The notes under the pieces are model-generated. The model did not search any database. It saw only the letters and a program-made list of their open reading frames with translations, and had not been told where the DNA came from. Made by a program: the position numbers and the translations under genes. From positions 1 to 38,367 of IMG/VR virus record IMGVR_UViG_3300027808_001469: 38,367 nt of DNA; one strand, written 5' to 3'. The DNA is from a virus (Duplodnaviria > Caudoviricetes). Numbering within the stretch: position 1 is the stretch's first letter; each line of letters starts with the position of its first letter. Shown piece after piece: positions 7,187 through 38,285 of this stretch.

Positions 7187-7897
7187 CTATTTCCAGTACT
7201 TAGAGTAGTCTGCCCTGTTCCAATAAGCATCGTTGTTTCTATTCCAAAAGTTTTGGATAAGATACCATGCCATACCAAAATACCCCATCTTTTGAAACCT
7301 TCTACTATCTTGTCCAAAATAATGATTCATCAACTTGAATTTCTTTGGATCGTACTTTTTAGATAAAAAGAAATCTTCGCTTGTTCCATACTTCTCAGCA
7401 AAGCCACCAAACTCTTCAAATTTATCTCTGCGAGTTAACATGAAAGCACCAACAGCAAATGGCACTTTGTGTTTCATGATGTTATTTACAAAATTAAACA
7501 TCATAAATCCAATCTTTGCTCGCATGTCATTATCATAGCACTTTGCGTACAATCCGATTAAGTCTAGATTTTTGGATTCCATCTCATCAACTGCATCACG
7601 AATAGTATTGATATCAAAGAAACGAACATCAGCATCTATGAACAAGATGTATGGAGTAGTCACCAGCTTGGCTCCATTGTTCTTAGCAATACTAACTGGA
7701 CCACCATCAATAATCTCAACATTCAATCTTCCTTTGGTGGATTCAATAACTTTACGAGTATTGTCAGTAGAGCAATCTGCAATAATAATTCTGGTACTAC
7801 CTATCAGTTGATTGCGCAGTTGTAACAGCAACCACCCTATGTAATTTTCCTCATTTTTACAAGGAACTACAATTGTTATTTTACTACTTAATGACAT
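7187..7897 (-). CDS. Glycosyltransferase family 2
   Basis: IVVPCKNEE, DCSTDNT, AKNNGA, ILFIDAD, ED motif. Confidence 0.9.
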   Translation of the reverse strand: MSLSSKITIVVPCKNEENYIGWLLLQLRNQLIGSTRIIIADCSTDNTRKVIESTKGRLNVEIIDGGPVSIAKNNGAKLVTTPYILFIDADVRFFDINTIRDAVDEMESKNLDLIGLYAKCYDNDMRAKIGFMMFNFVNNIMKHKVPFAVGAFMLTRRDKFEEFGGFAEKYGTSEDFFLSKKYDPKKFKLMNHYFGQDSRRFQKMGYFGMAWYLIQNFWNRNNDAYWNRADYSKYWK

Positions 7898-13106: not shown

Positions 13107-13256
13107 TTATTCATCCTCGTCGAGTTCCTCTTCTTCGTAGATATCAGCAGAACACACAGGACAATAGACAATATCAGCAAGCACCTTGTCTTCTCCCTTG
13201 AGAACTATCTTTCCTCTTGCGTCACAACTTTCACATTCAAAATATTTTGTTATCAT
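13107..13256 (-). CDS. 49-aa Zn-ribbon/rubredoxin-like protein with acidic tail (not in ORF track)
   Basis: [49 protein letters not shown]; ATGA overlap with iscA. Confidence 0.75.
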
Positions 13257-13570
13257 ACGCTAAATGAACTTCCGCATCCACAAGTGGATTTTGCATTAGG
13301 ATTAGAGATAACAAACTGTGAACCTTTTAGTTTGTCACTAGTGAAATCAATTGTTGCCGTATCAAAATATTGCATACTCATAGCATCAACTACGAGATTA
13401 TCAATAACAAAGTCATCTTCTTCTTTGTCAGCTTCAAGCGTAAATCCATAGTTAAAACCAGAACATCCTCCGCCAGTAATAAATGCTCTTACATATTTCA
13501 TAGAGGGTTCATCTAAAAGAATCTCAGTAAGTTGTATTTTTGCGTTTTCTGTTAGAGTAATCATATGCAC
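13253..13570 (-). CDS. iscA: A-type Fe-S carrier (IscA/ErpA, HesB family)
   Basis: GGGCSGFNY and [14 protein letters not shown]. Confidence 0.88.
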
Positions 13571-13944
13571 TCACATTTTAGTTGATAGTCGTTTATTGCT
13601 GCTTTTATGGCATCTTCAGCAAGGATGCTACAATGGATTTTGACTGGTGGCAATGCGAGTTCTTGAGCAATGTCTGAATTTTTAATAACTGCTGCTTGCT
13701 CCAATGTCTTGCCCTTAACCCACTCGGTAACAAGAGAGGAACTTGCAATTGCAGATCCACATCCGTATGTTTTAAATTTTGCATCTGTAATAATTCCATC
13801 TTCAACTTTAATCTGTAACTTCATCACATCACCACATGCTGGTGCACCAACCATGCCAGTTCCAACTGATGGATCGTCTTTATCCAGAGAACCAACATTA
13901 CGTGGGTTTTCATAGTGGTCAATAACTTTATTTGAATATGCCAT
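13561..13944 (-). CDS. iscU: Fe-S cluster scaffold IscU
   Basis: [38 protein letters not shown]. Confidence 0.97.
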
Positions 13945-13945
13945 A

Positions 13946-14575
13946 TTACTCCTCGTACATGACTGTTTTAGTATCGCCCAGTGCCCACTTAGAATCTGAC
14001 TCTACAGACCATTTGACAGTGGCAACTTTAAAATCTGGATGTTTTAGTTCTTTTGGATTGCTGCTTGGTTCTAATATAATTAAACGATTATTTGGCTGAG
14101 CAGCAAACTGCCCATTATCACACTGAATGAAATTATAAGACTTGTGGTCTTCTGGATCTTCAGAAAACCCTGTATCAAGAATGTTAAAATCAGGATGAGC
14201 AGAATCAACTGTAAAAAGATAAACACCATACTGCCAATCTCCGTTCTTCAATTTAAACTTACAACGCATTGACTGTAGTTGTGCTTTTTTAATCACTGTG
14301 ATATCATAAGAAAGACAATCCCACAACTGAAGATAATCTAGGGGTAGTGGTTCACCTTCAATTGGTTTCCAGCAGTAAGCATGTAGTGGTAGTTTATCAT
14401 ATAAAGCACCGTAATTATTTAGATACGATTCAATACGAAACGCTTGTCCTCGTAAAGACTTAATGCTAACCCACCAACAAGGTTCAAGTTCTCCGTGACC
14501 TTTCTCAAAGTCATAGAGAAACTCTCTGCGTACAAAACACTTAATAGGTGGTAAGTTCGCTACGATATGTGACAT
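13946..14575 (-). CDS. Conserved hypothetical protein
   Basis: ANLPP...GALYDKLP...LQLWDC...YLFTVD...NGQFAAQPNNR; TAATG coupling. Confidence 0.75.
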   Translation of the reverse strand: MSHIVANLPPIKCFVRREFLYDFEKGHGELEPCWWVSIKSLRGQAFRIESYLNNYGALYDKLPLHAYCWKPIEGEPLPLDYLQLWDCLSYDITVIKKAQLQSMRCKFKLKNGDWQYGVYLFTVDSAHPDFNILDTGFSEDPEDHKSYNFIQCDNGQFAAQPNNRLIILEPSSNPKELKHPDFKVATVKWSVESDSKWALGDTKTVMYEE

Positions 14576-15564
14576 TATGCTGCCTTACCCCAAACATCAC
14601 CCCAGTCACCAGATAAAGTGCCTTTTGCATAATCAGTTACACGATTCTCAAAGAAGTTGCCGTGTACTGGTGCATTAATCATTTCTTCAACCCATGGCAG
14701 TGGATTCTTTTTAACTTTGAATACACCTTTCATACCAAGAGAGATTAGGCGACGATCTGCGATATAACGAATATACTTCTTTACGTCTTCAGCGGATAGA
14801 TCACGCATCTCTGCGCCAGCAAAAGAGATATCGATAAACTTGTCTTCAAGTTCTACCATGCGTTCTGCAATAGTGTAGATTTTACCCTTGAGTTCATCAT
14901 TCCAGATTTGTGGATTCTCTTTTATATATTCACGGAATAACTTAATCATTGACTCAGCATGCATGGTTTCGTCAACAATACTCCATGTAACGATCTGTCC
15001 CATACCTTTCATCATACCATGGCGTGGCATATTCAAAAGCATGATGAATGAAGAGAATAACTGCATACCTTCGGTGAATGCAGAAAACACAGCAATGTGT
15101 TCAGCAGTTGAAGCAATCGTACCATTACGTGATGAGATGTCAGCAACATAATCGTGCTTGTCTTTCATCTCTTGGTATTCCATAAACTGAGAATATGTAA
15201 CTTCGGGTAGACCCAAGGTTTCAATCAGATGGCTATACGCAGCAATGTGTAGTGCTTCACGTGCTGCAAATCCAGACAACATCATACGAATTTCTGGTTG
15301 TGGAAAGTATGGAAGATAGTTCTTCACATATCCACCAGCGACATCAATGTCACCTTGTGTAAAGAAACGAAAGATGTTTGTTAAGAAATCTTTTTCGGGT
15401 TGTGTTAGTTTCTTTTTCCAATCCTTTACATCTTCAGCCATTGGTACTTCTGTATGTAACCAATGTGATTGCTCGTGCTTTAACCATGCATCATATGCCC
15501 ATGGATAATTAAATGGTTTGAAGTAATTTCTTTCATCTGTCATTCTGCTATGTATTTTAGACAT
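14575..15564 (-). CDS. nrdB: Ribonucleotide reductase class I beta subunit
   Basis: FFTQGD, EALHIAAY, TEGMQLFSSF, DETMH, NFFE. Confidence 0.95.
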   Translation of the reverse strand: MSKIHSRMTDERNYFKPFNYPWAYDAWLKHEQSHWLHTEVPMAEDVKDWKKKLTQPEKDFLTNIFRFFTQGDIDVAGGYVKNYLPYFPQPEIRMMLSGFAAREALHIAAYSHLIETLGLPEVTYSQFMEYQEMKDKHDYVADISSRNGTIASTAEHIAVFSAFTEGMQLFSSFIMLLNMPRHGMMKGMGQIVTWSIVDETMHAESMIKLFREYIKENPQIWNDELKGKIYTIAERMVELEDKFIDISFAGAEMRDLSAEDVKKYIRYIADRRLISLGMKGVFKVKKNPLPWVEEMINAPVHGNFFENRVTDYAKGTLSGDWGDVWGKAA

Positions 15565-16060
15565 TGTTTATCTCTTTTAGTTTAAATGCAACACTTATTC
15601 GTAATTGTTTGCAATGGATTGATGGGTCGCTACCATAATGTAGCATGTTACTTTTAAATAATACTCCACTGTTAGGTACAGGAAGATATGATTGAATTTC
15701 ATCATTTTCTTGGAAGATAGTAAAACCTTCCCAGTTTGGTTGCCAAATTGGATTCATATAAATCAAAAATGTATAGCAATCATCTTGTAGTGCATCTCTA
15801 TGAAAATCTCCACATTGACCATATGATTGCCCATTTGCATTAACTGATATTAATTCAAATGTTTTATTGGTTAATTTTTGTATTCGTTTAAATAAAAATT
15901 CTGAGTAGTATGGTTTTTCTATTAAGTTTTTATACCAAAATGTTATGGCGTTTTCTGATTTAGAACTAATGTTATTAAATGTCCAAGAACTATCTCTTAT
16001 CATTTCATATTCAATTAAGAAATCATCTTCTGGTAGAATATTTTTATAAACACTAAACAT
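15557..16060 (-). CDS. 2OG-Fe(II) oxygenase between nrdA and nrdB
   Basis: FHRD...YMNPIW..NWEG...LHYG...LRISVAFK. Confidence 0.8.
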   Translation of the reverse strand: MFSVYKNILPEDDFLIEYEMIRDSSWTFNNISSKSENAITFWYKNLIEKPYYSEFLFKRIQKLTNKTFELISVNANGQSYGQCGDFHRDALQDDCYTFLIYMNPIWQPNWEGFTIFQENDEIQSYLPVPNSGVLFKSNMLHYGSDPSIHCKQLRISVAFKLKEINNV

Positions 16061-17879: not shown

Positions 17880-18560
17880 TTATAGTTTTATTAATTCATT
17901 TGCTAGAGGGAATACCTCAGCAATAACCTTTGCGCAGTGTCGTGCGACTTCTTGGTGTTCTTTTTGTGTACCATCTGCAGATCGGAGTTCAATAAAGTGA
18001 ATCCAGCTACGCAATGTACCATTCATATAAAGACGAGAAACAGTCAGTCCTTCTGGCAGTACTGCTCTTGCTTGTTCTTTTGCAATCCCATTTACGATTG
18101 CCCACTCATAAGCATTTTTACATTCTTCAATCACTCGCTTTTGTCTCTCTTCCCACCATGCTTGTAATGCTAAGTTGTCAGTCACAATACTATTTTGACG
18201 ATTATTCGTATCTTGGAGTCGGGCTTCCCTAAGAACGAAAGATAAGTCTTTTGTTGGATCAGCATATCGCTGGCTAAATTCTTGGAACGAGAAAGAACGA
18301 TGACGCAAGATTTGTCTTGCTATGTCACGAGTTGTTTCAATTTCTAAACAAGCACTGACCATTTCTAGTGGTGACCAGTGTTGATGTTTAATTAAATACT
18401 TAATTAACTTCTCTGATGTATCTGTGTTGAACTGGTTGCTGGGATTACTCACTCTAGCACAAAAGGCAACTAACTCTTGTACATCTACTAAACCTTCTTT
18501 ATACATTTCTTCCGAAGGTTTACTATAACTTATCATTCTAACATTCATATTTTCTTCCAT
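17880..18560 (-). CDS. thyX: Flavin-dependent thymidylate synthase
   Basis: HWSPLE, RQILRHRSFSFQEFSQRY, EQARAVLP; start may be 18548. Confidence 0.95.
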   Translation of the reverse strand: MEENMNVRMISYSKPSEEMYKEGLVDVQELVAFCARVSNPSNQFNTDTSEKLIKYLIKHQHWSPLEMVSACLEIETTRDIARQILRHRSFSFQEFSQRYADPTKDLSFVLREARLQDTNNRQNSIVTDNLALQAWWEERQKRVIEECKNAYEWAIVNGIAKEQARAVLPEGLTVSRLYMNGTLRSWIHFIELRSADGTQKEHQEVARHCAKVIAEVFPLANELIKL

Positions 18561-25458: not shown

Positions 25459-27840
25459 TTAGAATACACTTGGTTGTTTACCTTGAGTATATTTTGAATG
25501 AGACAATCTTGCTTTCTCAATTTTACGAACACGAGGTGCTAGACGAGTAGCAATGCGACCAATAATTGCTTTGCGTTGCTCTAGTGTTCTTTCGATTCTT
25601 TCTTTTTCACCAACAGAAAGTTTTGATGCATCTCTGCCACGTAGCATGCGTTGCTTGATTAGTTTGACTGCTAAACGACGTGCACGCTTATTAATTGTTG
25701 CAGTGTTTGAGTAACGCTTGAGTGCTATCTTGGTTGCACGCTCACGCTTTGCTGAGGTGCGACGAATTCTACTTTTAGCTTTCATGCGTTCAATGCGAGA
25801 AAGAACTTCCCATAAAGCAGATTCTTCAAGTTCTTTTTCTTCTGGTTCATCTTCTGGCAATTCTTCGCCAGTTTCAGCATCAACAATACCCAGTTCATCT
25901 TCATCATATACATCTAGATAATCATCATCAGATAATTTGTCTGCCATAGTATCGACTTCATCATCAGACATTTCTGGAAAGACGATATCGTTTGTATCTT
26001 CTGGTTCAACTTCTTCATGTAGGTCTGCATGAACAGTTTTGTGCGGTGCTCTTTTGACATGGTCTGCAAAGTTTTTAGCATCACTGTTTGATTTGAATTT
26101 AAAGAAAGCACCCTTATCAGAGTTTCCATCAAATTCACCATTGTGTTTCTTTGCGCCAGCCATGACATGTTCAACATCTTTATCATGTGGCTTGTCACCA
26201 TAATTGCTACCGTCATCTACATGAACAATATGTTCTTCTTTAAGTTGATCATGTTTCTTCAGATCATTATCGAATTGCTTGGTAGTGGCTTTGTTGATAC
26301 CTTTGAATCGTTTGTCACCTTTGGCATAATCACCAGCTTTGTCTGCTGCAGATGCTTGTTCAGATGCTTTCTTTTTATATCTTGCTAGAAGATCCGTTGA
26401 CAATTCACTTAAAGATTCTTTTTCTCTAGTTTGTTTATCAGAAAGAGACTCTTTTTCTTTAGCATGCTTGGCAATTAGATTTGCTTTAGCAGTTTCTTTT
26501 GCTACGCTATCATCTTGTTCGCCTAGATGATATTTAACCTTGCGACGACGAAGATTATCTGAAGTATCACTTGATGATAATGTGCCACCAATTTGATGTG
26601 TCTGTCCTGGAGTTTCTTCGTGTTCTTCTTTAACAGAATTCATCTTTTGCAGTTTCTTAAAGTCACTGAATCTAAGAATATCTTTTGCAATATTATAGTT
26701 ACTATTTTTATTCACAACAACTGAATCTGTAGTTGTCTCAATCTTATCTGTACCATTAACTTGTACAGCACCTTCTTTTAATTTATTTGGTTTTAGTGTA
26801 GCATCGTATTTAATACCTTGCTCTGTGGCAAGATTAAGCATTTTATCAAGGATATGCAAGGCTTCTGGATTAAGTGCCTTTGTACGAACTTTACGTAGTG
26901 CTTGATTGATAAGATTTTCTGGATTAGAAGATGACTCAGCATTATCATTACCAAGCATAGTAGCAATAATACGAGCAACTTTAATCTTATCAGTTGGTCT
27001 TAATGTTTTATCTGTAAGTTCTTCTTGCATATTTTCTTTTTCTTCTGTTGGTTGAACATCTTGAATCCACTTAGATACTAATTTTCCAGATTCTTCTTTT
27101 AATAGTAAATGATTTGAACCACGTTTAACGATTTTGAATTTTTTACCGTCAGATTCTACGATGTCTCCCTCATTAAAAATCTCTGCATTGAAATATCTTT
27201 CACGCAGTTCATTTTTAACAAGAACAATCTGTTCTTTGATCGGTTCAAGACCCATACCATCACGAATGTCATTCATTAATCTTTTACCATCAATGTCACG
27301 AACAGTAGATGGCAGACCTACTTTAAAGTCTGAATAGTTACCTTTAACTGCTAGTGCACGCATCTTAGAAGCAGACATACCAGAAGCATCATCTGCATCT
27401 GGATCTCGTTCACCTGCTGAAACTACTTCAATAGTGTCGAAGTTAAATTCTTTACCGTTGTATGTATTTAACAAACGCTTGTATTCAGCAATACGATCTG
27501 AACCAGCAATCATGATAAGGTTTTTATACTTTGTGTTCAACTGTGCTGCAGCTTCGATAAAGGTACGAACCTTATCATTTGCTGCAACAAAATTAGTACG
27601 CTTAAACATAAGTTTAAGATACTTAATCTTTTTCTCTACAGATAGGGGATTCTTTTTAGCATCTTGTGACCTAGATGCATAGATTACGTGATCAGCGTTT
27701 CGTTGATCAGCCAGTTTTTTAACTGCTTTAACCAGCAACTCGTGTCCCATTGTCGGAGGATTGAATCTTCCGAATGCGAATACCACTGTTTTGCTAGGCA
27801 GTTCTTTAATTAACTGTTTATAATCTTTCATTTTATCCAT
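25459..27840 (-). CDS. Cytidylyltransferase-like (HIGH nucleotidyltransferase) fused to long modular C-terminus
   Basis: FGRFNPPTMGH, KNPLS, AGSDR, MSASKMR; acidic linkers and a very basic last module. Confidence 0.85.
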   Translation of the reverse strand: MDKMKDYKQLIKELPSKTVVFAFGRFNPPTMGHELLVKAVKKLADQRNADHVIYASRSQDAKKNPLSVEKKIKYLKLMFKRTNFVAANDKVRTFIEAAAQLNTKYKNLIMIAGSDRIAEYKRLLNTYNGKEFNFDTIEVVSAGERDPDADDASGMSASKMRALAVKGNYSDFKVGLPSTVRDIDGKRLMNDIRDGMGLEPIKEQIVLVKNELRERYFNAEIFNEGDIVESDGKKFKIVKRGSNHLLLKEESGKLVSKWIQDVQPTEEKENMQEELTDKTLRPTDKIKVARIIATMLGNDNAESSSNPENLINQALRKVRTKALNPEALHILDKMLNLATEQGIKYDATLKPNKLKEGAVQVNGTDKIETTTDSVVVNKNSNYNIAKDILRFSDFKKLQKMNSVKEEHEETPGQTHQIGGTLSSSDTSDNLRRRKVKYHLGEQDDSVAKETAKANLIAKHAKEKESLSDKQTREKESLSELSTDLLARYKKKASEQASAADKAGDYAKGDKRFKGINKATTKQFDNDLKKHDQLKEEHIVHVDDGSNYGDKPHDKDVEHVMAGAKKHNGEFDGNSDKGAFFKFKSNSDAKNFADHVKRAPHKTVHADLHEEVEPEDTNDIVFPEMSDDEVDTMADKLSDDDYLDVYDEDELGIVDAETGEELPEDEPEEKELEESALWEVLSRIERMKAKSRIRRTSAKRERATKIALKRYSNTATINKRARRLAVKLIKQRMLRGRDASKLSVGEKERIERTLEQRKAIIGRIATRLAPRVRKIEKARLSHSKYTQGKQPSVF

Positions 27841-31172: not shown

Positions 31173-31901
31173 TTATTTAGGACGACGAGATGCTCGAATA
31201 GTTCGCTGGTATTTACGATCCCACTTAACGATCTGCTGCATCAGCTTAGGAATTGCAGCGTTATTACGATAGTCGTAATTGAATGCTTTAAGGATGTAGT
31301 TAAGAGTGGAAGAATCTTTAGAGTGCTTTGCTCTATTGATTAGTTCTTCTGTGGTGATGGTTGGTTTGTAGGTTTTGAAATCAAGTAACACACAATGGGC
31401 ATATGCCTGAATTTCATCGAACTCAGAAAGATATCTTCTCTCAATGTTCTTCTTTTCATGTTTTACTTTCTTGTAAGGAACAACGTAGTTTGACCACGCA
31501 TCTCCTCTTCTATCAAATTGCATAAAGTGTATTAGCTCATGCATTTGAGTCTGGATTATACGATACTTAAACTTGTTCCATGTATCGTATGTGAATCGAA
31601 ATTTATCGAACTCAGTTGTGTATATTTGGATACAGCACTGTCTTTCGTCTGGTCCATATTCACCGCCAACGGAAACATAGGTATCGTACAGTTTGGCTTT
31701 GGATTTTTGTGGAAGGAACTCAACTTTGGTTCTCCACTTTTTAAAGTAGTTTGAAAGACCCTTGCTATCATTGCAATAGTTGTCTAGGTCTTGCCAGACT
31801 TTTGAAGGTACAAATTTTGCTCTGAATGGACGCTTTTGAAAGTTGAGCAGATCCATCCAATCGTAATTAGCGTTTTCTAGGAATTCAAAATTGCATTGCA
31901 T
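31173..31901 (-). CDS. HExxH zincin-like metallopeptidase-domain protein
   Basis: MHELIHFMQ...YLSEFDEIQAYA. Confidence 0.65.
   Translation of the reverse strand: MQCNFEFLENANYDWMDLLNFQKRPFRAKFVPSKVWQDLDNYCNDSKGLSNYFKKWRTKVEFLPQKSKAKLYDTYVSVGGEYGPDERQCCIQIYTTEFDKFRFTYDTWNKFKYRIIQTQMHELIHFMQFDRRGDAWSNYVVPYKKVKHEKKNIERRYLSEFDEIQAYAHCVLLDFKTYKPTITTEELINRAKHSKDSSTLNYILKAFNYDYRNNAAIPKLMQQIVKWDRKYQRTIRASRRPK
31174..31180 (-). promoter_or_regulatory. Late-promoter-like CTAAATA
   Basis: Overlaps the stop of the upstream gene, 28 nt before the next ATG. Confidence 0.5.
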
Positions 31902-31922: not shown

Positions 31923-32531
31923 TTACATCTTGAAATTACTCTCCAAGAATGCGAGTACCTTTCCCTGCTCCTCTAAGTTAGTGTTACTAAACTCGGTAAT
32001 ATAAGGCATCAGTTCAAAGTTTGATAGTAGATTACTATATTTAGTTGCCCGACCTTTTAGGAAAGTTGCAGATTGATCGGATCCTCGTTCTGCATATCTT
32101 TCTTTTAACATATTATCTGGAACTTTAAGGTAAATTACCTGAAGATCCGTATTGGAAAGTTTCATTGTAAATTCCAAGAAAGACTGATTAAAGATTCGGT
32201 CTCCTTCGAATAGAATATTAGAAGCAGTCTCCGTAACGAACTGCTGTGCCACTGGTTGGACAGCCATACTTAGACGATCTGTACCAGCAAAAGTTTCACC
32301 ATCTTCATACTTACCTAGAATGTACAGGTCTAGTTCTTTACAATAAAGAGCAGGAAGCATCTTCTTTGGTTCAACTGTTTCCCACTGATACTTCTCCATA
32401 AATTTACGGAATAAAGTGGTCTTACCAGTTCCAGGTTGCCCACCAACAGCAATTAGTTTACGCACTTTTGGTTGTGCACGAATGACCTGAATAGAGATCT
32501 GGTCTGTTAATCCTACTTTTTCGTTAAGCAT
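31923..32531 (-). CDS. P-loop kinase, 5-hydroxymethylpyrimidine DNA kinase-like
   Basis: GGQPGTGKTT, FAGTDRLSM, FEGDR, ERGS.Q..FLKGR.TK; near the aG/PT-PPlase gene. Confidence 0.8.
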   Translation of the reverse strand: MLNEKVGLTDQISIQVIRAQPKVRKLIAVGGQPGTGKTTLFRKFMEKYQWETVEPKKMLPALYCKELDLYILGKYEDGETFAGTDRLSMAVQPVAQQFVTETASNILFEGDRIFNQSFLEFTMKLSNTDLQVIYLKVPDNMLKERYAERGSDQSATFLKGRATKYSNLLSNFELMPYITEFSNTNLEEQGKVLAFLESNFKM

Positions 32532-32943
32532 TTCTTGCTTCCTGTATTAAGTTCTTTAGTTCATCTTCAGTAAACACCCATACTCTTCCAAGAAAGTGGT
32601 GAGTGTCACTATCCACATTATGTTTCTTAGTGAATGTAGTTTTCTTGATTATATCCCTTGCAAGATTCTTAGACAAGTTTTCTTTAATCTCATCTGCATA
32701 AGTTGGAACAGTTTCTTTAAGTTTGGCTAACTCGAATTCGGCAACTTTGTGTTCAACTGTAATTTTGTTGAAACAATGACAATCAAGAAAGTCTTCTATA
32801 TCGAATCCACCGAATGCTAGCGTACTAGAATGCGTTGTTGATATTGTTCCACTAGTACCAATTGTAAGGCTTCCTGTTGTTAAACCACCATTGCTAATTA
32901 TTATTGTATCATTATTCATATTATTACCAATTACCGTTGTCAT
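32524..32943 (-). CDS. Hypothetical protein in the modification cassette
   Basis: ATGA overlap; low-complexity T/G/S N-terminus. Confidence 0.6.
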   Translation of the reverse strand: MTTVIGNNMNNDTIIISNGGLTTGSLTIGTSGTISTTHSSTLAFGGFDIEDFLDCHCFNKITVEHKVAEFELAKLKETVPTYADEIKENLSKNLARDIIKKTTFTKKHNVDSDTHHFLGRVWVFTEDELKNLIQEARNA

Positions 32944-33959
32944 GTAAACATCTCCAATCCATTTAATATAGGTTCTTCATCATTAAACATCCAATCCATA
33001 TTCTGCATTTTGCCAGTGTTAAGAAAAGATGTAAATTTATCTTTATCAATACCATGTCTATGATCTAATCTCAAGTCAATGGTTTCTTCTCTTGATTGCC
33101 ACAGAACATTCCAATCAATACCATACCATCCATCACCCTCAGCTTTAATAATTTCTTCAGCTTGACGATCTAGATAATACCCAAGGTAACGACCATGATG
33201 TTCTCTAAAGATTTTCTTGAATGAGCACAAACAAGTTTCCATTGTAAAGAAATCTATTTGGGATAATAAATCTGGGAATCTATCTTTGGTTTCTTCGAGA
33301 ATAGATCTGGCTTCTGACTCAAGAGTCGCATACTCGCTTCCATTGAGTTTTCTATCCATATCGTTATATCTGCCGAGGGCGCAAAGTAATCCATTACGAT
33401 GAGAGCGAGAGCCATCGTAATCATCCAGCATGAGACTAGTAGGGCTGATGCGAATACCAGCGGTATGCTTAAGATGCTGAAGATAAAACCAAGTGGAATA
33501 GCGACCAAACTTATGCAGCCCAGACTTAACGCTTTTCCACAAGTTATCAAAGTTTTGTGCCTCATTGTCTCCATAAAAACCTTCTATTCTTTCTCGTTGT
33601 GTTTTATCACCAATGAATTGCTGATAAGAAGCAAACATGGCAGGTAGATGACCTTTGTTCCACTTTGTATCAGTTTGGTAACGTAGTCGTTTATAATTTG
33701 TAGTATTCCACTGAGTAATACGATCCACAGTTGCCAACTCAAAGTCTGGGAACTCATTCTTTAGAACCCATGCAGTTGGTAGTTGATACGTATTACCATA
33801 TAGCCAAGCTAACCAAATTCTTTCTTCATCATTATGTTCATAGCGATTGTGCAAATAGTTTGTGCACCAAACAGCTGGATCACAGTCATCATATTTTAAT
33901 GACCAAGCATACCAGCGAATGAACGCTTCTCTATTATTTTCTGGTAAACGATAATCCAT
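32940..33959 (-). CDS. aG/PT-pyrophosphorylase-type amino acid:DNA transferase (HhH-glycosylase fold)
   Basis: WLAWLYG.TY, KFGRYSTWFY, GSRSHRNGL, ETCLCSFKK, RYLGYYLDR. Confidence 0.8.
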   Translation of the reverse strand: MDYRLPENNREAFIRWYAWSLKYDDCDPAVWCTNYLHNRYEHNDEERIWLAWLYGNTYQLPTAWVLKNEFPDFELATVDRITQWNTTNYKRLRYQTDTKWNKGHLPAMFASYQQFIGDKTQRERIEGFYGDNEAQNFDNLWKSVKSGLHKFGRYSTWFYLQHLKHTAGIRISPTSLMLDDYDGSRSHRNGLLCALGRYNDMDRKLNGSEYATLESEARSILEETKDRFPDLLSQIDFFTMETCLCSFKKIFREHHGRYLGYYLDRQAEEIIKAEGDGWYGIDWNVLWQSREETIDLRLDHRHGIDKDKFTSFLNTGKMQNMDWMFNDEEPILNGLEMFT

Positions 33960-34600
33960 TATTTTAAAAATTCATCAAGTGATGGTTGATCCATTAGTGC
34001 TTCTCGTAACCATGCTTTACCAACTGCATTAATTGCAGTTTGGCTCTTTGCTCTTTTCTTATCACCCCACTTGTATGATTCTAAACCTTCAGCACGAAAT
34101 TGATCTCTTGCTTTGTATGGTGGTAGTGCTTGTAGTGGATTCACAATGGCAAAGTCACGATAAGCAATCTGCTCTGCTCTTGTTGAAAACAATGGTTGGT
34201 CTGAACGAAGTGAACCTGTTGGATCAACTGCCCACCAAATCAAACCATTCTTATAATGCCATGTAACTGAAGAAGGAGTGCAAGACATCTTCAGTCTTGT
34301 TATCTTTCTTTCTTTAACTGCATAATCAATCCAAGTATCCCAACACGTTGAGGCGTAACCCTTACCTTCATTTCCTTCAAGTGTAACAATCTCGTAAAGA
34401 TTGCTATAACCATCTCGATTGAATGTGGCAAAGATTAGTGAAACAACTTCTCCATTAACTTCATAAGCCAGTGGAGGTGCTTTGTCATAGTTATGAAAAC
34501 GATACCACAATGAATGTGCTGCTGATAAGAACTTAGTGTTCTTGCCAGCTGGACTAGTTTTAATTAACTCTTCAACTCTTGTTGAATTAACAAAGTTCAT
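33959..34600 (-). CDS. GNAT-fold acyltransferase
   Basis: LYEIVTLEGNEGKGYAS (acetyl-CoA motif A), WHYKNG. Confidence 0.65.
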   Translation of the reverse strand: MNFVNSTRVEELIKTSPAGKNTKFLSAAHSLWYRFHNYDKAPPLAYEVNGEVVSLIFATFNRDGYSNLYEIVTLEGNEGKGYASTCWDTWIDYAVKERKITRLKMSCTPSSVTWHYKNGLIWWAVDPTGSLRSDQPLFSTRAEQIAYRDFAIVNPLQALPPYKARDQFRAEGLESYKWGDKKRAKSQTAINAVGKAWLREALMDQPSLDEFLK

Positions 34601-35267
34601 GTTGTAAGTCTACCGCATCTTCAATATTTACTTTTTCAATCGTCATTGCAAGACGTTCATCAAATGTAAAATAGTGGTTCATTAAAATATTAATTGGGAA
34701 TCCTGGAACTTCTGCTCGTTTTGAGATATCAGCAGTAGAAGTAATTATACATCCATTTGATATAGATGTCAAATATAATGGACGCTTACCATTGCGATAA
34801 ACTAGCAACTTCTTATCACTGGTTAATTCGCAAACACCCATAGACATATCTGGGAATTCTTCCAGTGGTGAATCAGAATGCAATATCAATTCACTGTCAT
34901 TTTTAGTAGTGCAAGTATACCCATATAGTTCTTTCCAGTTTTCTGGCAACTCTTGGGTTATAACACCATTGTGAACAACAGCTTGATCTTGATTACCAAT
35001 TGGTTGGTTGAATTCTAAATCACTGGTACTATATCTACAATGCCCGATAAGATAAAGATTTCCATCTTCATTTACGTAACTTGGAAAGTTAAAGGGAAAC
35101 TCATCAGCAGGAACTGGTCGTTTGTCAATAACAATCTCGTTGTTCTTAACATAAGCAATGCCAGTAGCATGCAATCCTCGAATCTTAGACTCAAGGAATA
35201 CACGATGAAGCATTAAGAAATCCTCGGCATGAGGTTTTTTAATAATTGCTCCAATGACTCCGCACAT
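34587..35267 (-). CDS. Stand-alone class II (Ntn) glutamine amidotransferase
   Basis: N-terminal MCGVIG, RG..ATG, IGHCRYST, NQP, HNGVI, NDSE, RPL. Confidence 0.88.
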   Translation of the reverse strand: MCGVIGAIIKKPHAEDFLMLHRVFLESKIRGLHATGIAYVKNNEIVIDKRPVPADEFPFNFPSYVNEDGNLYLIGHCRYSTSDLEFNQPIGNQDQAVVHNGVITQELPENWKELYGYTCTTKNDSELILHSDSPLEEFPDMSMGVCELTSDKKLLVYRNGKRPLYLTSISNGCIITSTADISKRAEVPGFPINILMNHYFTFDERLAMTIEKVNIEDAVDLQHELC

Positions 35268-36592
35268 TAGAAGAATCCTTCAAGTGAATTTGCCTTTTGT
35301 GATTCTGGATGATACTTCATTAGAGTATCATTACCAAGTCTTGACTCAAGGTATTCATACCACTCATCAGACTCCCACATAGAAGAACTAACACCATTCC
35401 AAAGATGTCGTTGAGAACCATCTTCGTACTTTTGGTCTGGGTGTTCTTTGTTAAGTCTACGGTGTTCAACAAAGTCATAACGACAATCTTCATATTGTTT
35501 TGAACCCAACTCAAGCATCTTCTCACGAAAGTAAACAACCAAAGAGATTCTCTCTGCCACATTATCAAGCAATTGAATTTGAGTATTGCCATGCATTACT
35601 TCATGGTTGTTAATGAGTAATAGATCTCCAGGTCTTGGATTGACAGCAACACGATACTCTGGTGCTACCAAATAACAACCTGTATAGTTACCATTATTAG
35701 TTAGAGTCAATAGATTGGATAGACCAGCAGTAAAGTCACCAGCATCGCAATGGCATGCAGTTCTAAATGATTTGTTGACAGTAACAGTAGTGAATGGAGT
35801 TCCTGGAACCAAGAATGCAGGATCTAGTTTCTTTGCTGCTTCCATCTGATTGTTGTATCTCCATGGCAACAGGTCTTTAAAACCTTGAGCAAGTTGCTGT
35901 AAGAATGGATATGCCATGGCAAACTTTGCTGGTTCACGAGCAGTATAAGATGTTGCACGACCATAAGGAATACGAGGATAACGATCAAACCATCCAGCGA
36001 TACCAGACATAACACCATTGGCATAGGTAGTTGCGCATACATATGCTTTTTCAACTCGTCTGGCTTCAGTGACCATTTCAGATGTATCTAGTTTACGAAC
36101 TTTCTCAACCCATGCATTAAATACAAATCCGTCTTTCTTAACTGCTTGAATACCCCAAACATTATTTCTTGTGGATGGTTTGTCAGTCTTACCTTCATGT
36201 TTGGCTTTAATAACATCAATTGGATCTCCGTCCAACGATGCCTTTGGATTCAAGAAGTAATCAATAATTTCTGATTCGTATTCAGTGACCCACTCACGAT
36301 TACCTAACTTCTCTGCTCTTGGACCTGCAGCCATACCTCTGTTCTGAGTTTCAGTTGCTGCTTCACGAAGTCCAATATACGCTTGGTCTTGTTGTTCTTT
36401 ACTGAAGTAGTTCTTGCGGAACTTCAAAACAATTCTTTCCTCAGAGTATGTCATCTCTGGATGTCCTGGAATCTCTGGCATATAAACATCACAATCCTCT
36501 TCAATGAGGAAATCATAATTCGACTCATCTGGGAATTGACCCAGCATATGAGTCATATCAAGTTTCTCTTTTGCTACAATTACTTTTACCAT
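35267..36592 (-). CDS. TET/JBP-family 2OG-Fe(II) 5-methylpyrimidine dioxygenase
   Basis: FTTVTVNKSFRTACHCDAGD (HxD), HEVMHGNT, ERISLVVYFREKM. Confidence 0.85.
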   Translation of the reverse strand: MVKVIVAKEKLDMTHMLGQFPDESNYDFLIEEDCDVYMPEIPGHPEMTYSEERIVLKFRKNYFSKEQQDQAYIGLREAATETQNRGMAAGPRAEKLGNREWVTEYESEIIDYFLNPKASLDGDPIDVIKAKHEGKTDKPSTRNNVWGIQAVKKDGFVFNAWVEKVRKLDTSEMVTEARRVEKAYVCATTYANGVMSGIAGWFDRYPRIPYGRATSYTAREPAKFAMAYPFLQQLAQGFKDLLPWRYNNQMEAAKKLDPAFLVPGTPFTTVTVNKSFRTACHCDAGDFTAGLSNLLTLTNNGNYTGCYLVAPEYRVAVNPRPGDLLLINNHEVMHGNTQIQLLDNVAERISLVVYFREKMLELGSKQYEDCRYDFVEHRRLNKEHPDQKYEDGSQRHLWNGVSSSMWESDEWYEYLESRLGNDTLMKYHPESQKANSLEGFF

Positions 36593-36601
36593 AACTTTCT
36601 C

Positions 36602-37993
36602 CTAAAACTTAAATCCTTCGAACGATTCTGCTTTTTGTCTGCGACCAAAATTACTTTTATCAAACATTGGTTCATCATCATCAGTCTTTCCTGAGTCACT
36701 CAGCGTTTGTGCCGATGCTTCTACATCATACAGTTTCATCTTCGATCGATCAACTCCGATAACAAATCTCTTGTAAAGATTTAAATCGTTATATCGATTC
36801 TTTAACTGTTTAACAATAATCTGATTCAATGCTTCTAACTCTTCATTACTGACCAAAGCAAACATAAAGTCAGCTGTCGCTGGCAAGCCAAAAGATTCAG
36901 AGGTATCTTCAAGTCCTGGATCCGAGTTTGTGAATCCAGAACGAGTCGTTTGAGTAGCTGATACAATGGGAACATTATACTCAACTGCCAATCCTCTTAA
37001 TTCTTCTGCTATGCTCTTGATATATGTATAAGAGTTAATACTTCCACCTTGCTTCATTCGTTGACTCGCACAAATATTGAGATAGTCAACGAAGATAATA
37101 TCAGGTTTAAATTCTCGTTTCAGTTTTAGTTCTTCCAGCAAAGCACGAAAGTGACCAGCATGTGCGCTGGCAGTTGGGTATTCTTTGACGATTAACTTGC
37201 CTTTAGTCTTTTTTACAATCTTGGCAATACGACTTTCGTAGATATCCCTGTCAATAACTTTTAATTCATCCATGGTTAGGTTCAAAAGATTTGCATCAAT
37301 CCTTTCAGCGATGCGCTCTTCTGCCATTTCCATAGTTATGTATAAGACATTTTTTCCTTGGGTTAGGCAACCAGCACCAACGTGACACATAAACAAAGAC
37401 TTACCAACACCAGTGCCAGCAAGACAAATGTTAAGGGTTTTCTTTGATAGTCCACCCTTAGTGATTTTATTGAACATTTCAAGATCGAATGGAACTTTCT
37501 CTTCCACCCTATGATAAAAATCATACCTCTCATTATGGTCATCCAAATAGTCATGCCCAATATGATTATCAAATGAAACAGCAAGTGCATCAGAAAGAAT
37601 AGATGGAAGTGAATCAGTTGACTGAGCCTTGTCTTTACCATCAATGATTTGAATTGATTTAAGAATTGCATTATAAACTGCTCTGTCCTTACAAAACTTT
37701 TCAGTATTTTCTAACATCCAGTCTTCATTGACTGGTTCTTGGCTAAGTGTACCGATAAATTTGCCAAGGTCATCCAACTCTTTATCGTTGAGATCTTTCC
37801 TATTACTAATTTCAATCTGTAGGATTTCTTTGGATACTGGTTTGTTATACTTGGTGAAGAAAGAAACAATCTCGTCTGCTAAGATTACTTCTTTGCGCTC
37901 TGCAAAATATTCTTTCTTGATAAATGGAATTACTTTACGGCAATAGTTTTCATCAAATATCAGATTGCTCAGAATCTTTTGTTCTATTCGCAT
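36602..37993 (-). CDS. gp41: Replicative helicase gp41 (DnaB-like)
   Basis: AGTGVGKS, YITMEM, IFVDYLNI, SATQTTR, TSESFGLP, KQLKNRY; alternative GTG start at 38008. Confidence 0.97.
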   Translation of the reverse strand: MRIEQKILSNLIFDENYCRKVIPFIKKEYFAERKEVILADEIVSFFTKYNKPVSKEILQIEISNRKDLNDKELDDLGKFIGTLSQEPVNEDWMLENTEKFCKDRAVYNAILKSIQIIDGKDKAQSTDSLPSILSDALAVSFDNHIGHDYLDDHNERYDFYHRVEEKVPFDLEMFNKITKGGLSKKTLNICLAGTGVGKSLFMCHVGAGCLTQGKNVLYITMEMAEERIAERIDANLLNLTMDELKVIDRDIYESRIAKIVKKTKGKLIVKEYPTASAHAGHFRALLEELKLKREFKPDIIFVDYLNICASQRMKQGGSINSYTYIKSIAEELRGLAVEYNVPIVSATQTTRSGFTNSDPGLEDTSESFGLPATADFMFALVSNEELEALNQIIVKQLKNRYNDLNLYKRFVIGVDRSKMKLYDVEASAQTLSDSGKTDDDEPMFDKSNFGRRQKAESFEGFKF

Positions 37994-38285
37994 CAATTTC
38001 TGTTCCACCTGTGTATGTTAAATTGTTTTCTGCCACACCTTGATGTAGCAATTCTTGTAGTATATCACCTATGTATGCTTCAAAAGGTTTCATATCTGTC
38101 ATACCTTTATCAGCAGAATCAAGGATCTCATACTCAAACTTTAAATGCAAAGTATCATCCTGTTCATCGAATGACACCTTTCCATATGTATAAATTATAC
38201 CTTCAAAAGCACCTTCTGTCAATTTTATTGCTTGAAGACCACTGTGTCTATTCTCTGTAATAGTAATTGGTAGATTACTCTTCAT
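37953..38285 (-). CDS. gp40-like protein (by synteny uvsX-40-41)
   Basis: 110-aa acidic ORF immediately upstream of gp41. Confidence 0.5.
   Translation of the reverse strand: MKSNLPITITENRHSGLQAIKLTEGAFEGIIYTYGKVSFDEQDDTLHLKFEYEILDSADKGMTDMKPFEAYIGDILQELLHQGVAENNLTYTGGTEIDANRTKDSEQSDI

Follow-up and report, generated by a model that had tools for sequence, protein, structure and literature searches.

Which modified base would a phage build when it encodes, side by side, a TET/JBP dioxygenase, a glutamine amidotransferase, an acyltransferase and an amino acid:DNA transferase, and from where would the hydroxymethyl group and the nitrogen of that base come? The question is raised by IMG/VR record IMGVR_UViG_3300027808_001469 (38,367 nt; this whole stretch is referred to as the window), a 38-kb piece comprising about a quarter of the genome of an uncultured T4-like phage. 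Six minus-strand open reading frames (ORFs; 31923-36592) encode a TET/JBP (5mYOX) enzyme, an N-terminal nucleophile (Ntn) amidotransferase, a GNAT, an amino acid:DNA transferase (AADT), a hypothetical protein and a P-loop kinase. Neighbouring ORFs overlap by 1, 14, 1, 4 and 8 nt (from TET to kinase), the TET gene starts 9 nt past the stop codon of a helicase gene, and five of the six products matched Pfam families above cut-off, the exception being the 139-aa hypothetical protein. An earlier note, made from the letters alone, had described these genes as one coupled hypermodification cassette; we recovered the same ORFs, with Pfam matches, intact catalytic residues and retention in relatives.

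The pathway that we favour is as follows. The phage would replicate with ordinary thymine, for which ThyX would supply dTMP (the gene is present; its function is assigned from its family), and some thymines would then be rebuilt in place. The TET/JBP enzyme would oxidize T on DNA to 5-hydroxymethyluracil (5-hmU), as has been shown for other clade C1 enzymes, and the P-loop kinase, judged from its context, would convert 5-hmU to 5-phosphomethyl-deoxyuridine (5-PmdU). The transferase would then form a Cys245-linked exocyclic methylene, a mechanism shown for M6 gp51 and PaMx11 gp46, and may capture on it ammonia freed from glutamine by the amidotransferase to give 5-aminomethyl-deoxyuridine (5-aminomethyl-dU; 257 u). 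The GNAT would acetylate this amine to 5-acetylaminomethyl-dU (299 u), the PaMx11 product reached by a shorter route; in a sister form of the cassette, an amidoligase and a different GNAT would load the same amine with a longer acyl chain. Docking on the sliding clamp gp45 would be through the C-terminal tails of TET and GNAT and, less strongly, of the transferase, and host-type promoters would co-express the enzymes with replication genes. The purpose is likely to be protection from host nucleases. That thymine is hypermodified after replication, in some form, we hold to be highly probable.

A search with the window TET returned 332 IMG/VR stretches, of which the best 80 (L001-L080; TET 70-100% identical) were taken. 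The amidotransferase gene lies at most 2 kb from TET in 69 of the 70 loci with at least 800 nt downstream, and amidotransferase, GNAT and transferase occur together in all 46 loci with at least 3.3 kb downstream (L077 and L079 among them being the amidoligase variant), so the gene grouping is not due to chance. T4-like phages and smaller ones alike retain the gene set, in reordered and sometimes fused versions. In the sole exception, L071 (TET 71% identical), an unrelated gene for a 335-aa protein without a Pfam family (L071:4072-5079) takes the amidotransferase place and replaces the whole downstream cassette. The cassette is real, widespread and of an already published kind; the enzyme set that had been called unusual belongs to a class in print (Lee 2021, PMC8989533; O'Toole 2026, PMC13229309). 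It is common, given the 332 stretches for the window TET alone.

Origin of the hydroxymethyl group

The dioxygenase is of a long form (441 aa) with a large central insert and a C-terminal extension. Its iron ligands and 2-oxoglutarate arginine (H281, D283, H334 and R348) are invariant in an alignment of 45 homologues and align with the HxD..H..R residues of TET2 (weak match, E 0.085). A C1-type motif, DRYPRIPYGR, occupies residues 203-212; using motif patterns taken from Dataset S11 of O'Toole 2026, we found the C1 type in 80 and the C2 type in none of the 150 best 50%-cluster TET matches. P0241, by eye much like the published 5mYOX191, is 39% identical to the window TET (E 9e-37). The clade was assigned by motif and alignment rather than by a tree, and the L311 row of a three-way TET alignment was disregarded as the wrong ORF. 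The C1 motif, the C-terminal extension and the lack of an adjacent C5-methyltransferase fit a putative clade C1 phage T-dioxygenase, and the ParB-independent clade C2 type (about 290-300 aa, no extension) is not matched. Clade C1 phage enzymes oxidize T on DNA, and one subclass needs ParB (PMC13229309).

The earlier note had reasoned that, with ThyX in the window and neither a hydroxymethylase nor a C5-methyltransferase, the handle is probably made on DNA by TET. Both premises stand: ThyX was recovered, and Pfam and PHROG scans of 45 window ORFs found no ThyA-type hydroxymethylase and no C5-methyltransferase. As the window is part of a genome, absence from whole genomes was judged in two CheckV-complete relatives, G001 (164 kb), whose TET is 93% identical and whose gene order is unchanged, and G002 (168 kb), which has terminal repeats. 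ThyX is present in both, and no PF00303, PF00145 or PF02195 was found in either. Further profiles, derived from hydroxymethylases and ParBs that belong to related cassettes, gave no match in the window, G001 or G002. PF00303 itself is able to pick up the synthase-type genes next to related cassettes (78-92 bits in L267, L268 and L318). A Pfam scan of 105 non-structural G001 ORFs (241 called) yielded no amidoligase, synthetase partner, hydroxymethylase or DNA methylase. The candidates considered for a place elsewhere in the genome (hydroxymethylase, C5-methyltransferase, ParB, amidoligase or other synthetase) were all rejected for complete G001, and G002 has the in-cassette amidoligase only. 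The genome scan for a C5-methyltransferase or dUMP hydroxymethylase that the earlier note proposed was therefore negative in both complete genomes, which are close relatives and not this genome itself. Because G001 and G002 encode ThyX without hydroxymethylase, C5-methyltransferase or ParB, oxidation of T on DNA is the likely entry step, and the C1-type motif points the same way. Two observations count against the favoured pathway: no cultured phage was found with the full cassette, and clade C1 enzymes that lack ParB showed no activity on T or 5-methylcytosine (5mC) when expressed in Escherichia coli (PMC13229309).

The window also encodes a dCMP deaminase (1523-2026). The cultured Caulobacter phage Cr30 (L082:8001-17148) has a long TET (annotated 'SNF2 DNA repair protein'), a transferase, a TAGT-like glycosyltransferase and a kinase, with a strong PF00303 match elsewhere in its genome. 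A long TET also occurs in the cultured Stenotrophomonas phage DLP6.

The nitrogen step and its alternatives

The amidotransferase has the features of an Ntn enzyme, namely an N-terminal Cys nucleophile, an Arg, HxRxST, an HNG oxyanion hole and an Asp for the substrate amino group. C2, R30, H76, R78, T81, N100, G101 and D124 are invariant in 44 homologues and align with the GlmS glutaminase domain (weak match, E 0.023); R78, T81, G101 and D124 fall on GlmS residues that we take to grip the free alpha-carboxyl and alpha-amino groups of glutamine. It had been described as stand-alone, without a synthetase partner, and none was found among the 105 G001 ORFs. In the transferase, E241, T242, C245 and Y154 are invariant in 37 homologues and match by motif E243, T244, C247 and W146 of PaMx11 gp46 (PMC11472151). 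The top three fold matches of its structural model (pLDDT 86.8) are PaMx11 gp46 (8z2n, probability 1.00, TM-score 0.55/0.62, E 8e-3); PDB sequence searches with the transferase, single or as a profile, returned nothing, and gp46 was recovered by fold search alone. PF18724, the gp46 fold and a catalytic Cys with nearby Glu place the enzyme in the aGPT-Pplase2 class, its 12-29% identity to characterized enzymes being too low to indicate the nucleophile.

Fusions and locus counts link the two proteins. Among 33 longer amidotransferase relatives, 7 were PurF-like and the other 26 comprised 22 transferase fusions, 2 GNAT-type fusions and 2 amidoligase fusions; the amidotransferase comes first in all 22. 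Amidotransferase and transferase occur together in 194 loci (near-copies counted), of which 89 have GNAT type A only, 88 an amidoligase and GNAT type B, 8 an amidoligase only and 9 neither. In six of these nine (L267-L270, L307 and L309) the pair stands without an amidoligase, and even a lax threshold revealed no clear GNAT. The third locus set was recruited with the fusion alignment and is thus biased toward the pair. On the transferase tree (56 rows, 31 of 87 having been removed as redundant; the fused L267 and L268 are not in it), the amidoligase state changes 12 times, at least 9 of them forced by well-supported branches; the root hangs on one long-branch row (L318) and rooting was not used. 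These gains and losses indicate that transferase and amidotransferase are independent of the amidoligase, and by gene content the two are the constant pair of these cassettes.

The GNAT (type A) model (pLDDT 81.8) has an ordinary N-acetyltransferase fold, resembling SpeG-type and other N-acetyltransferases (best E 1e-5), with an acyl-CoA motif, EGKGYAS, at residue 78. We found 518 relatives of this GNAT and no match among 50,697 cultured phage records. PaMx11 gp48, a GNAT, acetylates 5-aminomethyl-dU (5-NmdU; PMC8989533).

We tentatively propose, at somewhat below even confidence, that glutamine-derived ammonia is passed through the transferase to give aminomethyl-dU, which is then acetylated. 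The earlier note had guessed at ammonia supply and an aminomethyl, then N-acyl, base; this coincides with our best reading, to which the fusions (22/26) are added, and its product side we infer. Three points tell against the proposal. The closest fusions (P0121-P0124, 43-46% identity) join the amidotransferase to a GNAT (2) or an amidoligase (2), transferase fusions being at 28-38%; the nearest cultured amidotransferases (PaP3-like, 29%) adjoin amidoligases; and the transferases characterized in the accessible literature use amino acids or polyamines, none of them ammonia.

The preference of characterized transferases for amino acids or amines (PMC8989533) would suit a pathway that keeps the TET and kinase entry and attaches a whole amino acid, such as glutamine, after which the amidotransferase would act as an amidase on DNA (converting, for instance, glutaminyl-thymine into glutamyl-thymine, with calculated masses of about 386 and 387 u) and the GNAT would acylate the adduct. 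SP10 makes alpha-glutamylthymine (PMC8989533), Y154 stands where phiW-14 has a Tyr for a larger amine (PMC11472151), and an amidotransferase-transferase fusion suits consecutive steps equally. Nevertheless, the invariant R78, T81, G101 and D124 are easier to reconcile with free glutamine than with a DNA-borne residue linked through N-alpha, and the amidotransferase has no clamp-like tail (0/92 by the strict pattern), unlike TET and GNAT. We regard such an adduct as unlikely, while giving it some weight.

GNAT type A and the amidoligase are nearly mutually exclusive: among the loci with amidotransferase and transferase they occur in 89 and 96 loci, respectively, and none has both. Together with fusions P0121-P0124 and the PaP3-like neighbours, this pattern would fit a role in which ammonia is fed to an amide-forming partner (the amidoligase in type B cassettes, with the type A GNAT as its replacement here) that turns an adduct into a carboxamide. 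Six loci, however, have amidotransferase and transferase with neither partner, the GNAT model is that of an ordinary N-acetyltransferase with an acyl-CoA motif, and the truncated locus L333 holds an amidoligase plus a type-A-like GNAT; this role is quite improbable.

The sister form was defined by a search with the G002 amidoligase (218 stretches, 80 taken), and in those 80 loci the order is TET-amidotransferase-amidoligase-GNAT(B)-transferase-kinase. Amidoligase cassettes without a GNAT (L272, L281, L290, L293, L298, L324, L343 and L345) are likely to be further base variants; in several of them, the amidotransferase is separated from the transferase by a TAGT or GT1 glycosyltransferase or by a low-molecular-weight phosphatase. 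Of the 80 amidoligase loci, 45 have ORFs of 420-515 aa between GNAT and transferase (for example, L113:7426-8736 and L123:7520-9067), with a GIY-YIG- or HNH-like start by eye and, in one, a weak ParB_N match (E 0.013). A similar-looking ORF (L348:2716-3999) lies between TET and kinase in phage Melnitz, and a homing endonuclease or a ParB-type helper may be considered; no such insert was found in the window, G001 or G002. Sporadic cassette inserts at L073:6777, L015:8029 and L048:3183 encode a B12-binding radical SAM protein and 2OG-Fe(II) oxygenases.

The kinase is the weakest link of the favoured pathway. It has a Walker A motif, GGQPGTGKT, at residue 30, and its nearest cultured relatives are in Cr30 (39%) and Melnitz (38%), both in TET neighbourhoods, with others in actinophages. 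The earlier note had cited the pathways of ViI, M6, phiW-14 and SP10, in which the kinase phosphorylates hmdU in DNA; the best family here is PF18751 instead of the Pfam families named 5-hmdU DNA kinase, and homology to the 5-hydroxymethyluridine DNA kinases (5-HMUDK) M6 gp54, ViI gp67/gp243, SP10 gp186 and phiW-14 gp37 was not found, as none of these phages appears among the 40 of 61 kinase matches listed or the organism tallies. Weighing further against a 5-hmU role, no HMUDK helical domain was found in the window, G001 or G002, and the Melnitz relative follows a C5-methyltransferase and a TET in one cluster. The enzyme may still act as a 5-hmdU DNA kinase, and, going by context, the fact that it adjoins TETs in every one of these settings points to a kinase of hydroxymethyl-pyrimidine in DNA. 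The Melnitz cluster is itself of interest as a cultured arrangement (Methylophilales phage Melnitz-3, L348:457-4537) of C5-methyltransferase, TET and PF18751-like kinase adjoining the polymerase. The hypothetical gene between kinase and transferase, which the earlier note had counted within the coupled cassette, was ruled out as a pathway member and is likely a passenger of one lineage: it occurs in 45 of 47 close loci with transferase and kinase, as against 4/61 and 0/61 of more distant ones.

This kinase family's place beside C5-methyltransferase and TET in Melnitz bears on whether the handle is thymine oxidized on DNA at all; TET might instead act on host-made 5mC, or a hydroxymethylase might lie in the genome outside the window. 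Tested C1 and C2 enzymes oxidize 5mC about as well as T in vitro (PMC13229309), and L267, L268 and L318 have the amidotransferase-transferase pair with a thymidylate-synthase-type gene instead of TET. Loci with that gene have no TET, however, complete G001 and G002 lack both enzyme types, and the gp46 site coordinates thymine O4 through conserved Glu/Thr (PMC11472151), leaving either source very improbable. Least probable is that the genes form no single DNA-modifying pathway (because they have decayed, have small molecules or RNA as substrates, or are neighbours and no more), as the inactive ParB-less C1 enzymes and the polyamine acetyltransferases nearest to the GNAT in fold might suggest, given catalytic residues invariant in all alignments and a gene set that survives reordering and fusion across phage types.

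Polymerase-like tails, ParB and promoters

The favoured pathway gains a link to replication from the C termini of its enzymes. The polymerase of L001 and L002, whose cassette proteins are identical to those of the window, ends TQEESSLEDFFG, with terminal SLEDFFG, which the TET and GNAT tails (SLEGFF and SLDEFLK) resemble. A tail pattern matched 42 of 43 polymerase tails, 149 of 155 TET loci (61 distinct tails), all 62 GNATs and 12 of 113 transferases; its background was 3 of 241 G001 ORFs (polymerase, TET and GNAT) and 4 of 232 in G002 (polymerase, TET and two structural proteins). The transferase tail, GLEMFT, is weaker, a loose pattern with a background of about 7% matching 58/65 in tailed cassettes versus 0/20 in ParB-type cassettes. 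Among 50%-cluster representatives, 17 of the 21 aligning to the long-TET profile end with the tail and 1 of 129 others does, a partly circular comparison as the profile includes the tail. The gp45 gene is present in G001 and G002, whose gp55 homologues have a similar word within the last 20 residues, not at the terminus; in G001, gp45 and the clamp loader lie at L094:13029-13697 and in neighbouring ORFs. In T4, gp43, gp33 and gp55 bind gp45 through acidic-hydrophobic C termini (PMC2988020), and alpha-glucosyltransferase co-purifies with gp45 (PMC13216743). Going by these words, TET and GNAT carry predicted tails of the T4 gp45-client type, and they probably bind gp45.

Other facts temper this assignment. 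The pattern was written after the tails had been seen, and the two structural ORFs of G002 are false positives; the long TETs of Cr30 and S-CBWM1 have no tail; clamp binding did not account for T4 alpha-glucosylation levels (PMC13216743); and 40 of 69 TET tail DNAs hold a Shine-Dalgarno-like word. A by-product of the next gene's ribosome-binding site was rejected as the whole cause of the tails, because L, F and F are constant while TET tail codons vary synonymously, only 3 of 30 GNAT tails hold such a word, and tightly packed ParB-type cassettes have no tails.

In other loci the same amidotransferase-GNAT/amidoligase-transferase-kinase set accompanies short TETs (298-337 aa) that come straight after a ParB gene, the proteins there being 32-54% identical to those of the window. 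For 129 distinct TETs that are complete and preceded by 900 nt or more of sequence, we recorded the tail without ParB in 105, ParB without the tail in 18, neither in 6 and both in 0; GNAT tails follow suit (0/15 distinct type A GNATs in ParB cassettes versus 40/40 in tailed cassettes). Neither PF02195 nor a profile made from 13 cassette ParBs detected ParB in the window, G001 or G002, and it was also absent from three additional relatives of 90% completeness or more, in one of which the locus has a tailed TET. The gp45 gene, in turn, was not found in four contigs of the ParB type, which are 38-81% complete and point to genomes of about 30-50 kb. With no cognate ParB beside its dioxygenase, the window cassette lies outside the ParB-dependent 5mYOX subclass. 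As ParB cassettes form one clade (99/99 support) on the transferase tree, a Fisher test of tail versus ParB (p 3e-17) was discarded as meaningless, and the alternation is a single evolutionary contrast tied to phage lineage. The tails may be a general T4-like localization device rather than an activator, as the Melnitz TET, next to a C5-methyltransferase, ends LNDFLGE. That the clamp is strictly required for TET activity seems doubtful to us, although such a need would explain why ParB-less clade C1 enzymes seem dead in E. coli; if the clamp replaces ParB, ParB may itself be a DNA-tracking aid for these dioxygenases. Still more speculative, and unlikely as a whole, is that the entire hypermodification line works on the clamp, the long TET needing gp45 as short ones need ParB, with glutamine ammonia passed directly to the base.

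Two perfect sigma-70-type promoters are present, one upstream of the helicase gene and one within the amidotransferase gene. Among 29 distinct variants of the internal site in L001-L080, 23 score 12/12, 5 score 11/12 and 1 scores 10/12; the spacer and the amino acids it encodes vary, and conservation of the site declines in loci further removed. The 164 kb of G001 contain 7 perfect sites, of which two are at matching places (the upstream one at 94063). Weaker matches to the consensus are no commoner in the region than chance predicts (24 observed, 25 expected). The internal promoter is predicted to drive GNAT, transferase, hypothetical gene and kinase; the sites suggest expression by host polymerase together with replication genes and an extra supply of the downstream enzymes. 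The earlier note's gene list stands, and it had overlooked this promoter, the polymerase-like tails and the ParB and amidoligase sister forms.

Several neighbouring features were also recorded. The ORF right after the kinase (31173-31901, minus strand, 242 aa) has a metalloprotease-like HELIH (HExxH) motif at 121 and no Pfam family; it occurs in close relatives and not in distant cassettes. The helicase C terminus (36602-36620, minus strand), F-x-G-F-K-F, is kept in nearly all relatives and is unlike the polymerase-like tail. A 793-aa cytidylyltransferase-like protein (25459-27840, minus strand) adjoins DUF6267 and has a G001 homologue with the same QPSVF end. The window further has NifU and IscA-like Fe-S assembly genes adjoining ribonucleotide reductase (13253-16060), a GT2 glycosyltransferase (7187-7897) and, at its start, tRNA-Gln(TTG) (10-83). 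G001 encodes a Tad3 Thoeris inhibitor (L095:2197-2706), a protein with a dATP/dGTP diphosphohydrolase N-terminal domain (L094:13761-14111) and a class I glutamine amidotransferase/peptidase C26 (L090:3998-4543).

Table 1. Cassette genes, predicted tails, promoters and context genes of the window
Feature	Position	Strand	Basis
ThyX flavin-dependent thymidylate synthase (ordinary dTMP supply, context)	17880..18560	-	PF02511 152 bits
P-loop nucleotide kinase 3, putative hmU-DNA kinase judged by context	31923..32531	-	Ploopntkinase3 PF18751 37.8 bits (cut-off 27)
Hypothetical protein (139 aa), likely lineage-specific passenger	32524..32943	-	no Pfam or PHROG family; atlas matches <=0.81, unnamed
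AADT (aGPT-Pplase2), predicted to displace phosphate from 5-phosphomethyl-dU	32940..33959	-	ADDT PF18724 85 bits (cut-off 26.2)
GNAT-family acyltransferase, type A, 213 aa, predicted to acetylate aminomethyl group	33959..34600	-	Acetyltransf_1 PF00583 21.6 bits (cut-off 20.7)
GNAT tail SLDEFLK, polymerase-like	33962..33982	-	pattern in 62/62 GNAT loci
Class II (Ntn) glutamine amidotransferase, stand-alone, predicted ammonia donor	34587..35267	-	GATase_6 34.3 bits (cut-off 27)
Perfect sigma-70-type promoter within amidotransferase gene	34744..34772	-	TTGACA-17-TATAAT, 12/12; 144 nt before GNAT start
TET/JBP (5mYOX) Fe(II)/2-oxoglutarate dioxygenase, predicted thymine dioxygenase	35267..36592	-	Tet_JBP PF12851 97 bits (cut-off 34.9)
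TET tail SLEGFF, predicted sliding-clamp-binding motif	35270..35287	-	like DNA polymerase tail
T4 gp41-like replicative helicase, directly upstream of TET	36602..38008	-	phrog_19 E 9e-126; gene order kept in close loci
Second perfect sigma-70-type promoter, upstream of helicase-TET-amidotransferase	38194..38222	-	TTGACA-17-TATAAT, 12/12

Comparison with known systems

O'Toole 2026 (PMC13229309) links clade C1 to glutamine amidotransferases (GATases) as well as to P-loop kinases and AADTs, with some members lacking ParB and inactive on a basis left unclear there. The window resembles those clusters in its C1-type TET with C-terminal extension, the lack of a C5-methyltransferase and the set of GATase, P-loop kinase and AADT; a cytidylyltransferase-like gene, named with AADT, GATase and kinase in the Fig. 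S4 legend, is also downstream here. It differs in the length of its TET (441 aa versus about 210-335 aa for the 5mYOX sequences compared from Dataset S11), in having no ParB and in three TET motifs that occur in none of the 12 supplementary files. The words 'gp45' and 'sliding clamp' are absent from its supporting information (SI) appendix, and the accessible parts of the paper assign no downstream product.

Lee 2021 (PMC8989533) describes TET_JBP contigs without dUMP hydroxymethylase and the reconstitution of 5-acetylaminomethyl-dU (5-AcNmdU) with PaMx11 enzymes. As in those contigs, the neighbour of kinase and aGPT-Pplase2 here is TET in place of dUMP hydroxymethylase, and genes for an amidoligase and a glutaminotransferase are noted there as co-occurring; unlike here, where the kinase is PF18751, those contigs were found with proven 5-HMUDK queries, and the accessible text gives no role for the amidotransferase. 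Burke 2021 (PMC8256090) also lists TET contigs with kinase and aG/PT-PPlase. Our searches of the literature, largely outside subscription journals, found no product for any amidotransferase-bearing cassette, no clamp tails on TETs and no aminomethylation of DNA straight from glutamine ammonia. Beyond what is in print, the present analysis adds three testable points: glutamine-fed base amination, an alternation between clamp tails and ParB, and the conservation of an internal promoter. They bear on the role of the amidotransferase in thymidine hypermodification, left open by Lee 2021, and on the inactivity of ParB-less clade C1 dioxygenases. If true, direct amination from glutamine to DNA would provide DNA with an amine handle in a few enzymatic steps.

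The serine:DNA transferase pathway of ViI and other Ackermannviridae is related through its transferase, as Ackermannviridae-type phages give most cultured transferase matches (27-29% identity), and differs from the window in that the latter has no pyridoxal phosphate (PLP) decarboxylase, no hydroxymethylase and another kinase family. The PaMx11 5-AcNmdU pathway (gp49, gp46, gp47 and gp48) shares a kinase, an AADT of the same fold and ETxxC site (about 12% identical) and a GNAT, with the same predicted end product. In PaMx11, however, glycine is installed and trimmed by a flavin enzyme; here an amidotransferase stands instead, a TET gene heads the cassette, and no PaMx11-type flavin-dependent glycinylthymine lyase was found in the cassette or the 105 G001 ORFs scanned. 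Finally, like the T4 gp45 clients gp43, gp33 and gp55 (PMC2988020), the tailed enzymes would share an acidic-hydrophobic C-terminal epitope with the polymerase, for which alpha-glucosyltransferase offers a DNA-modifying precedent (PMC13216743); unlike those clients, two or three enzymes of one thymine pathway would carry the tail here.

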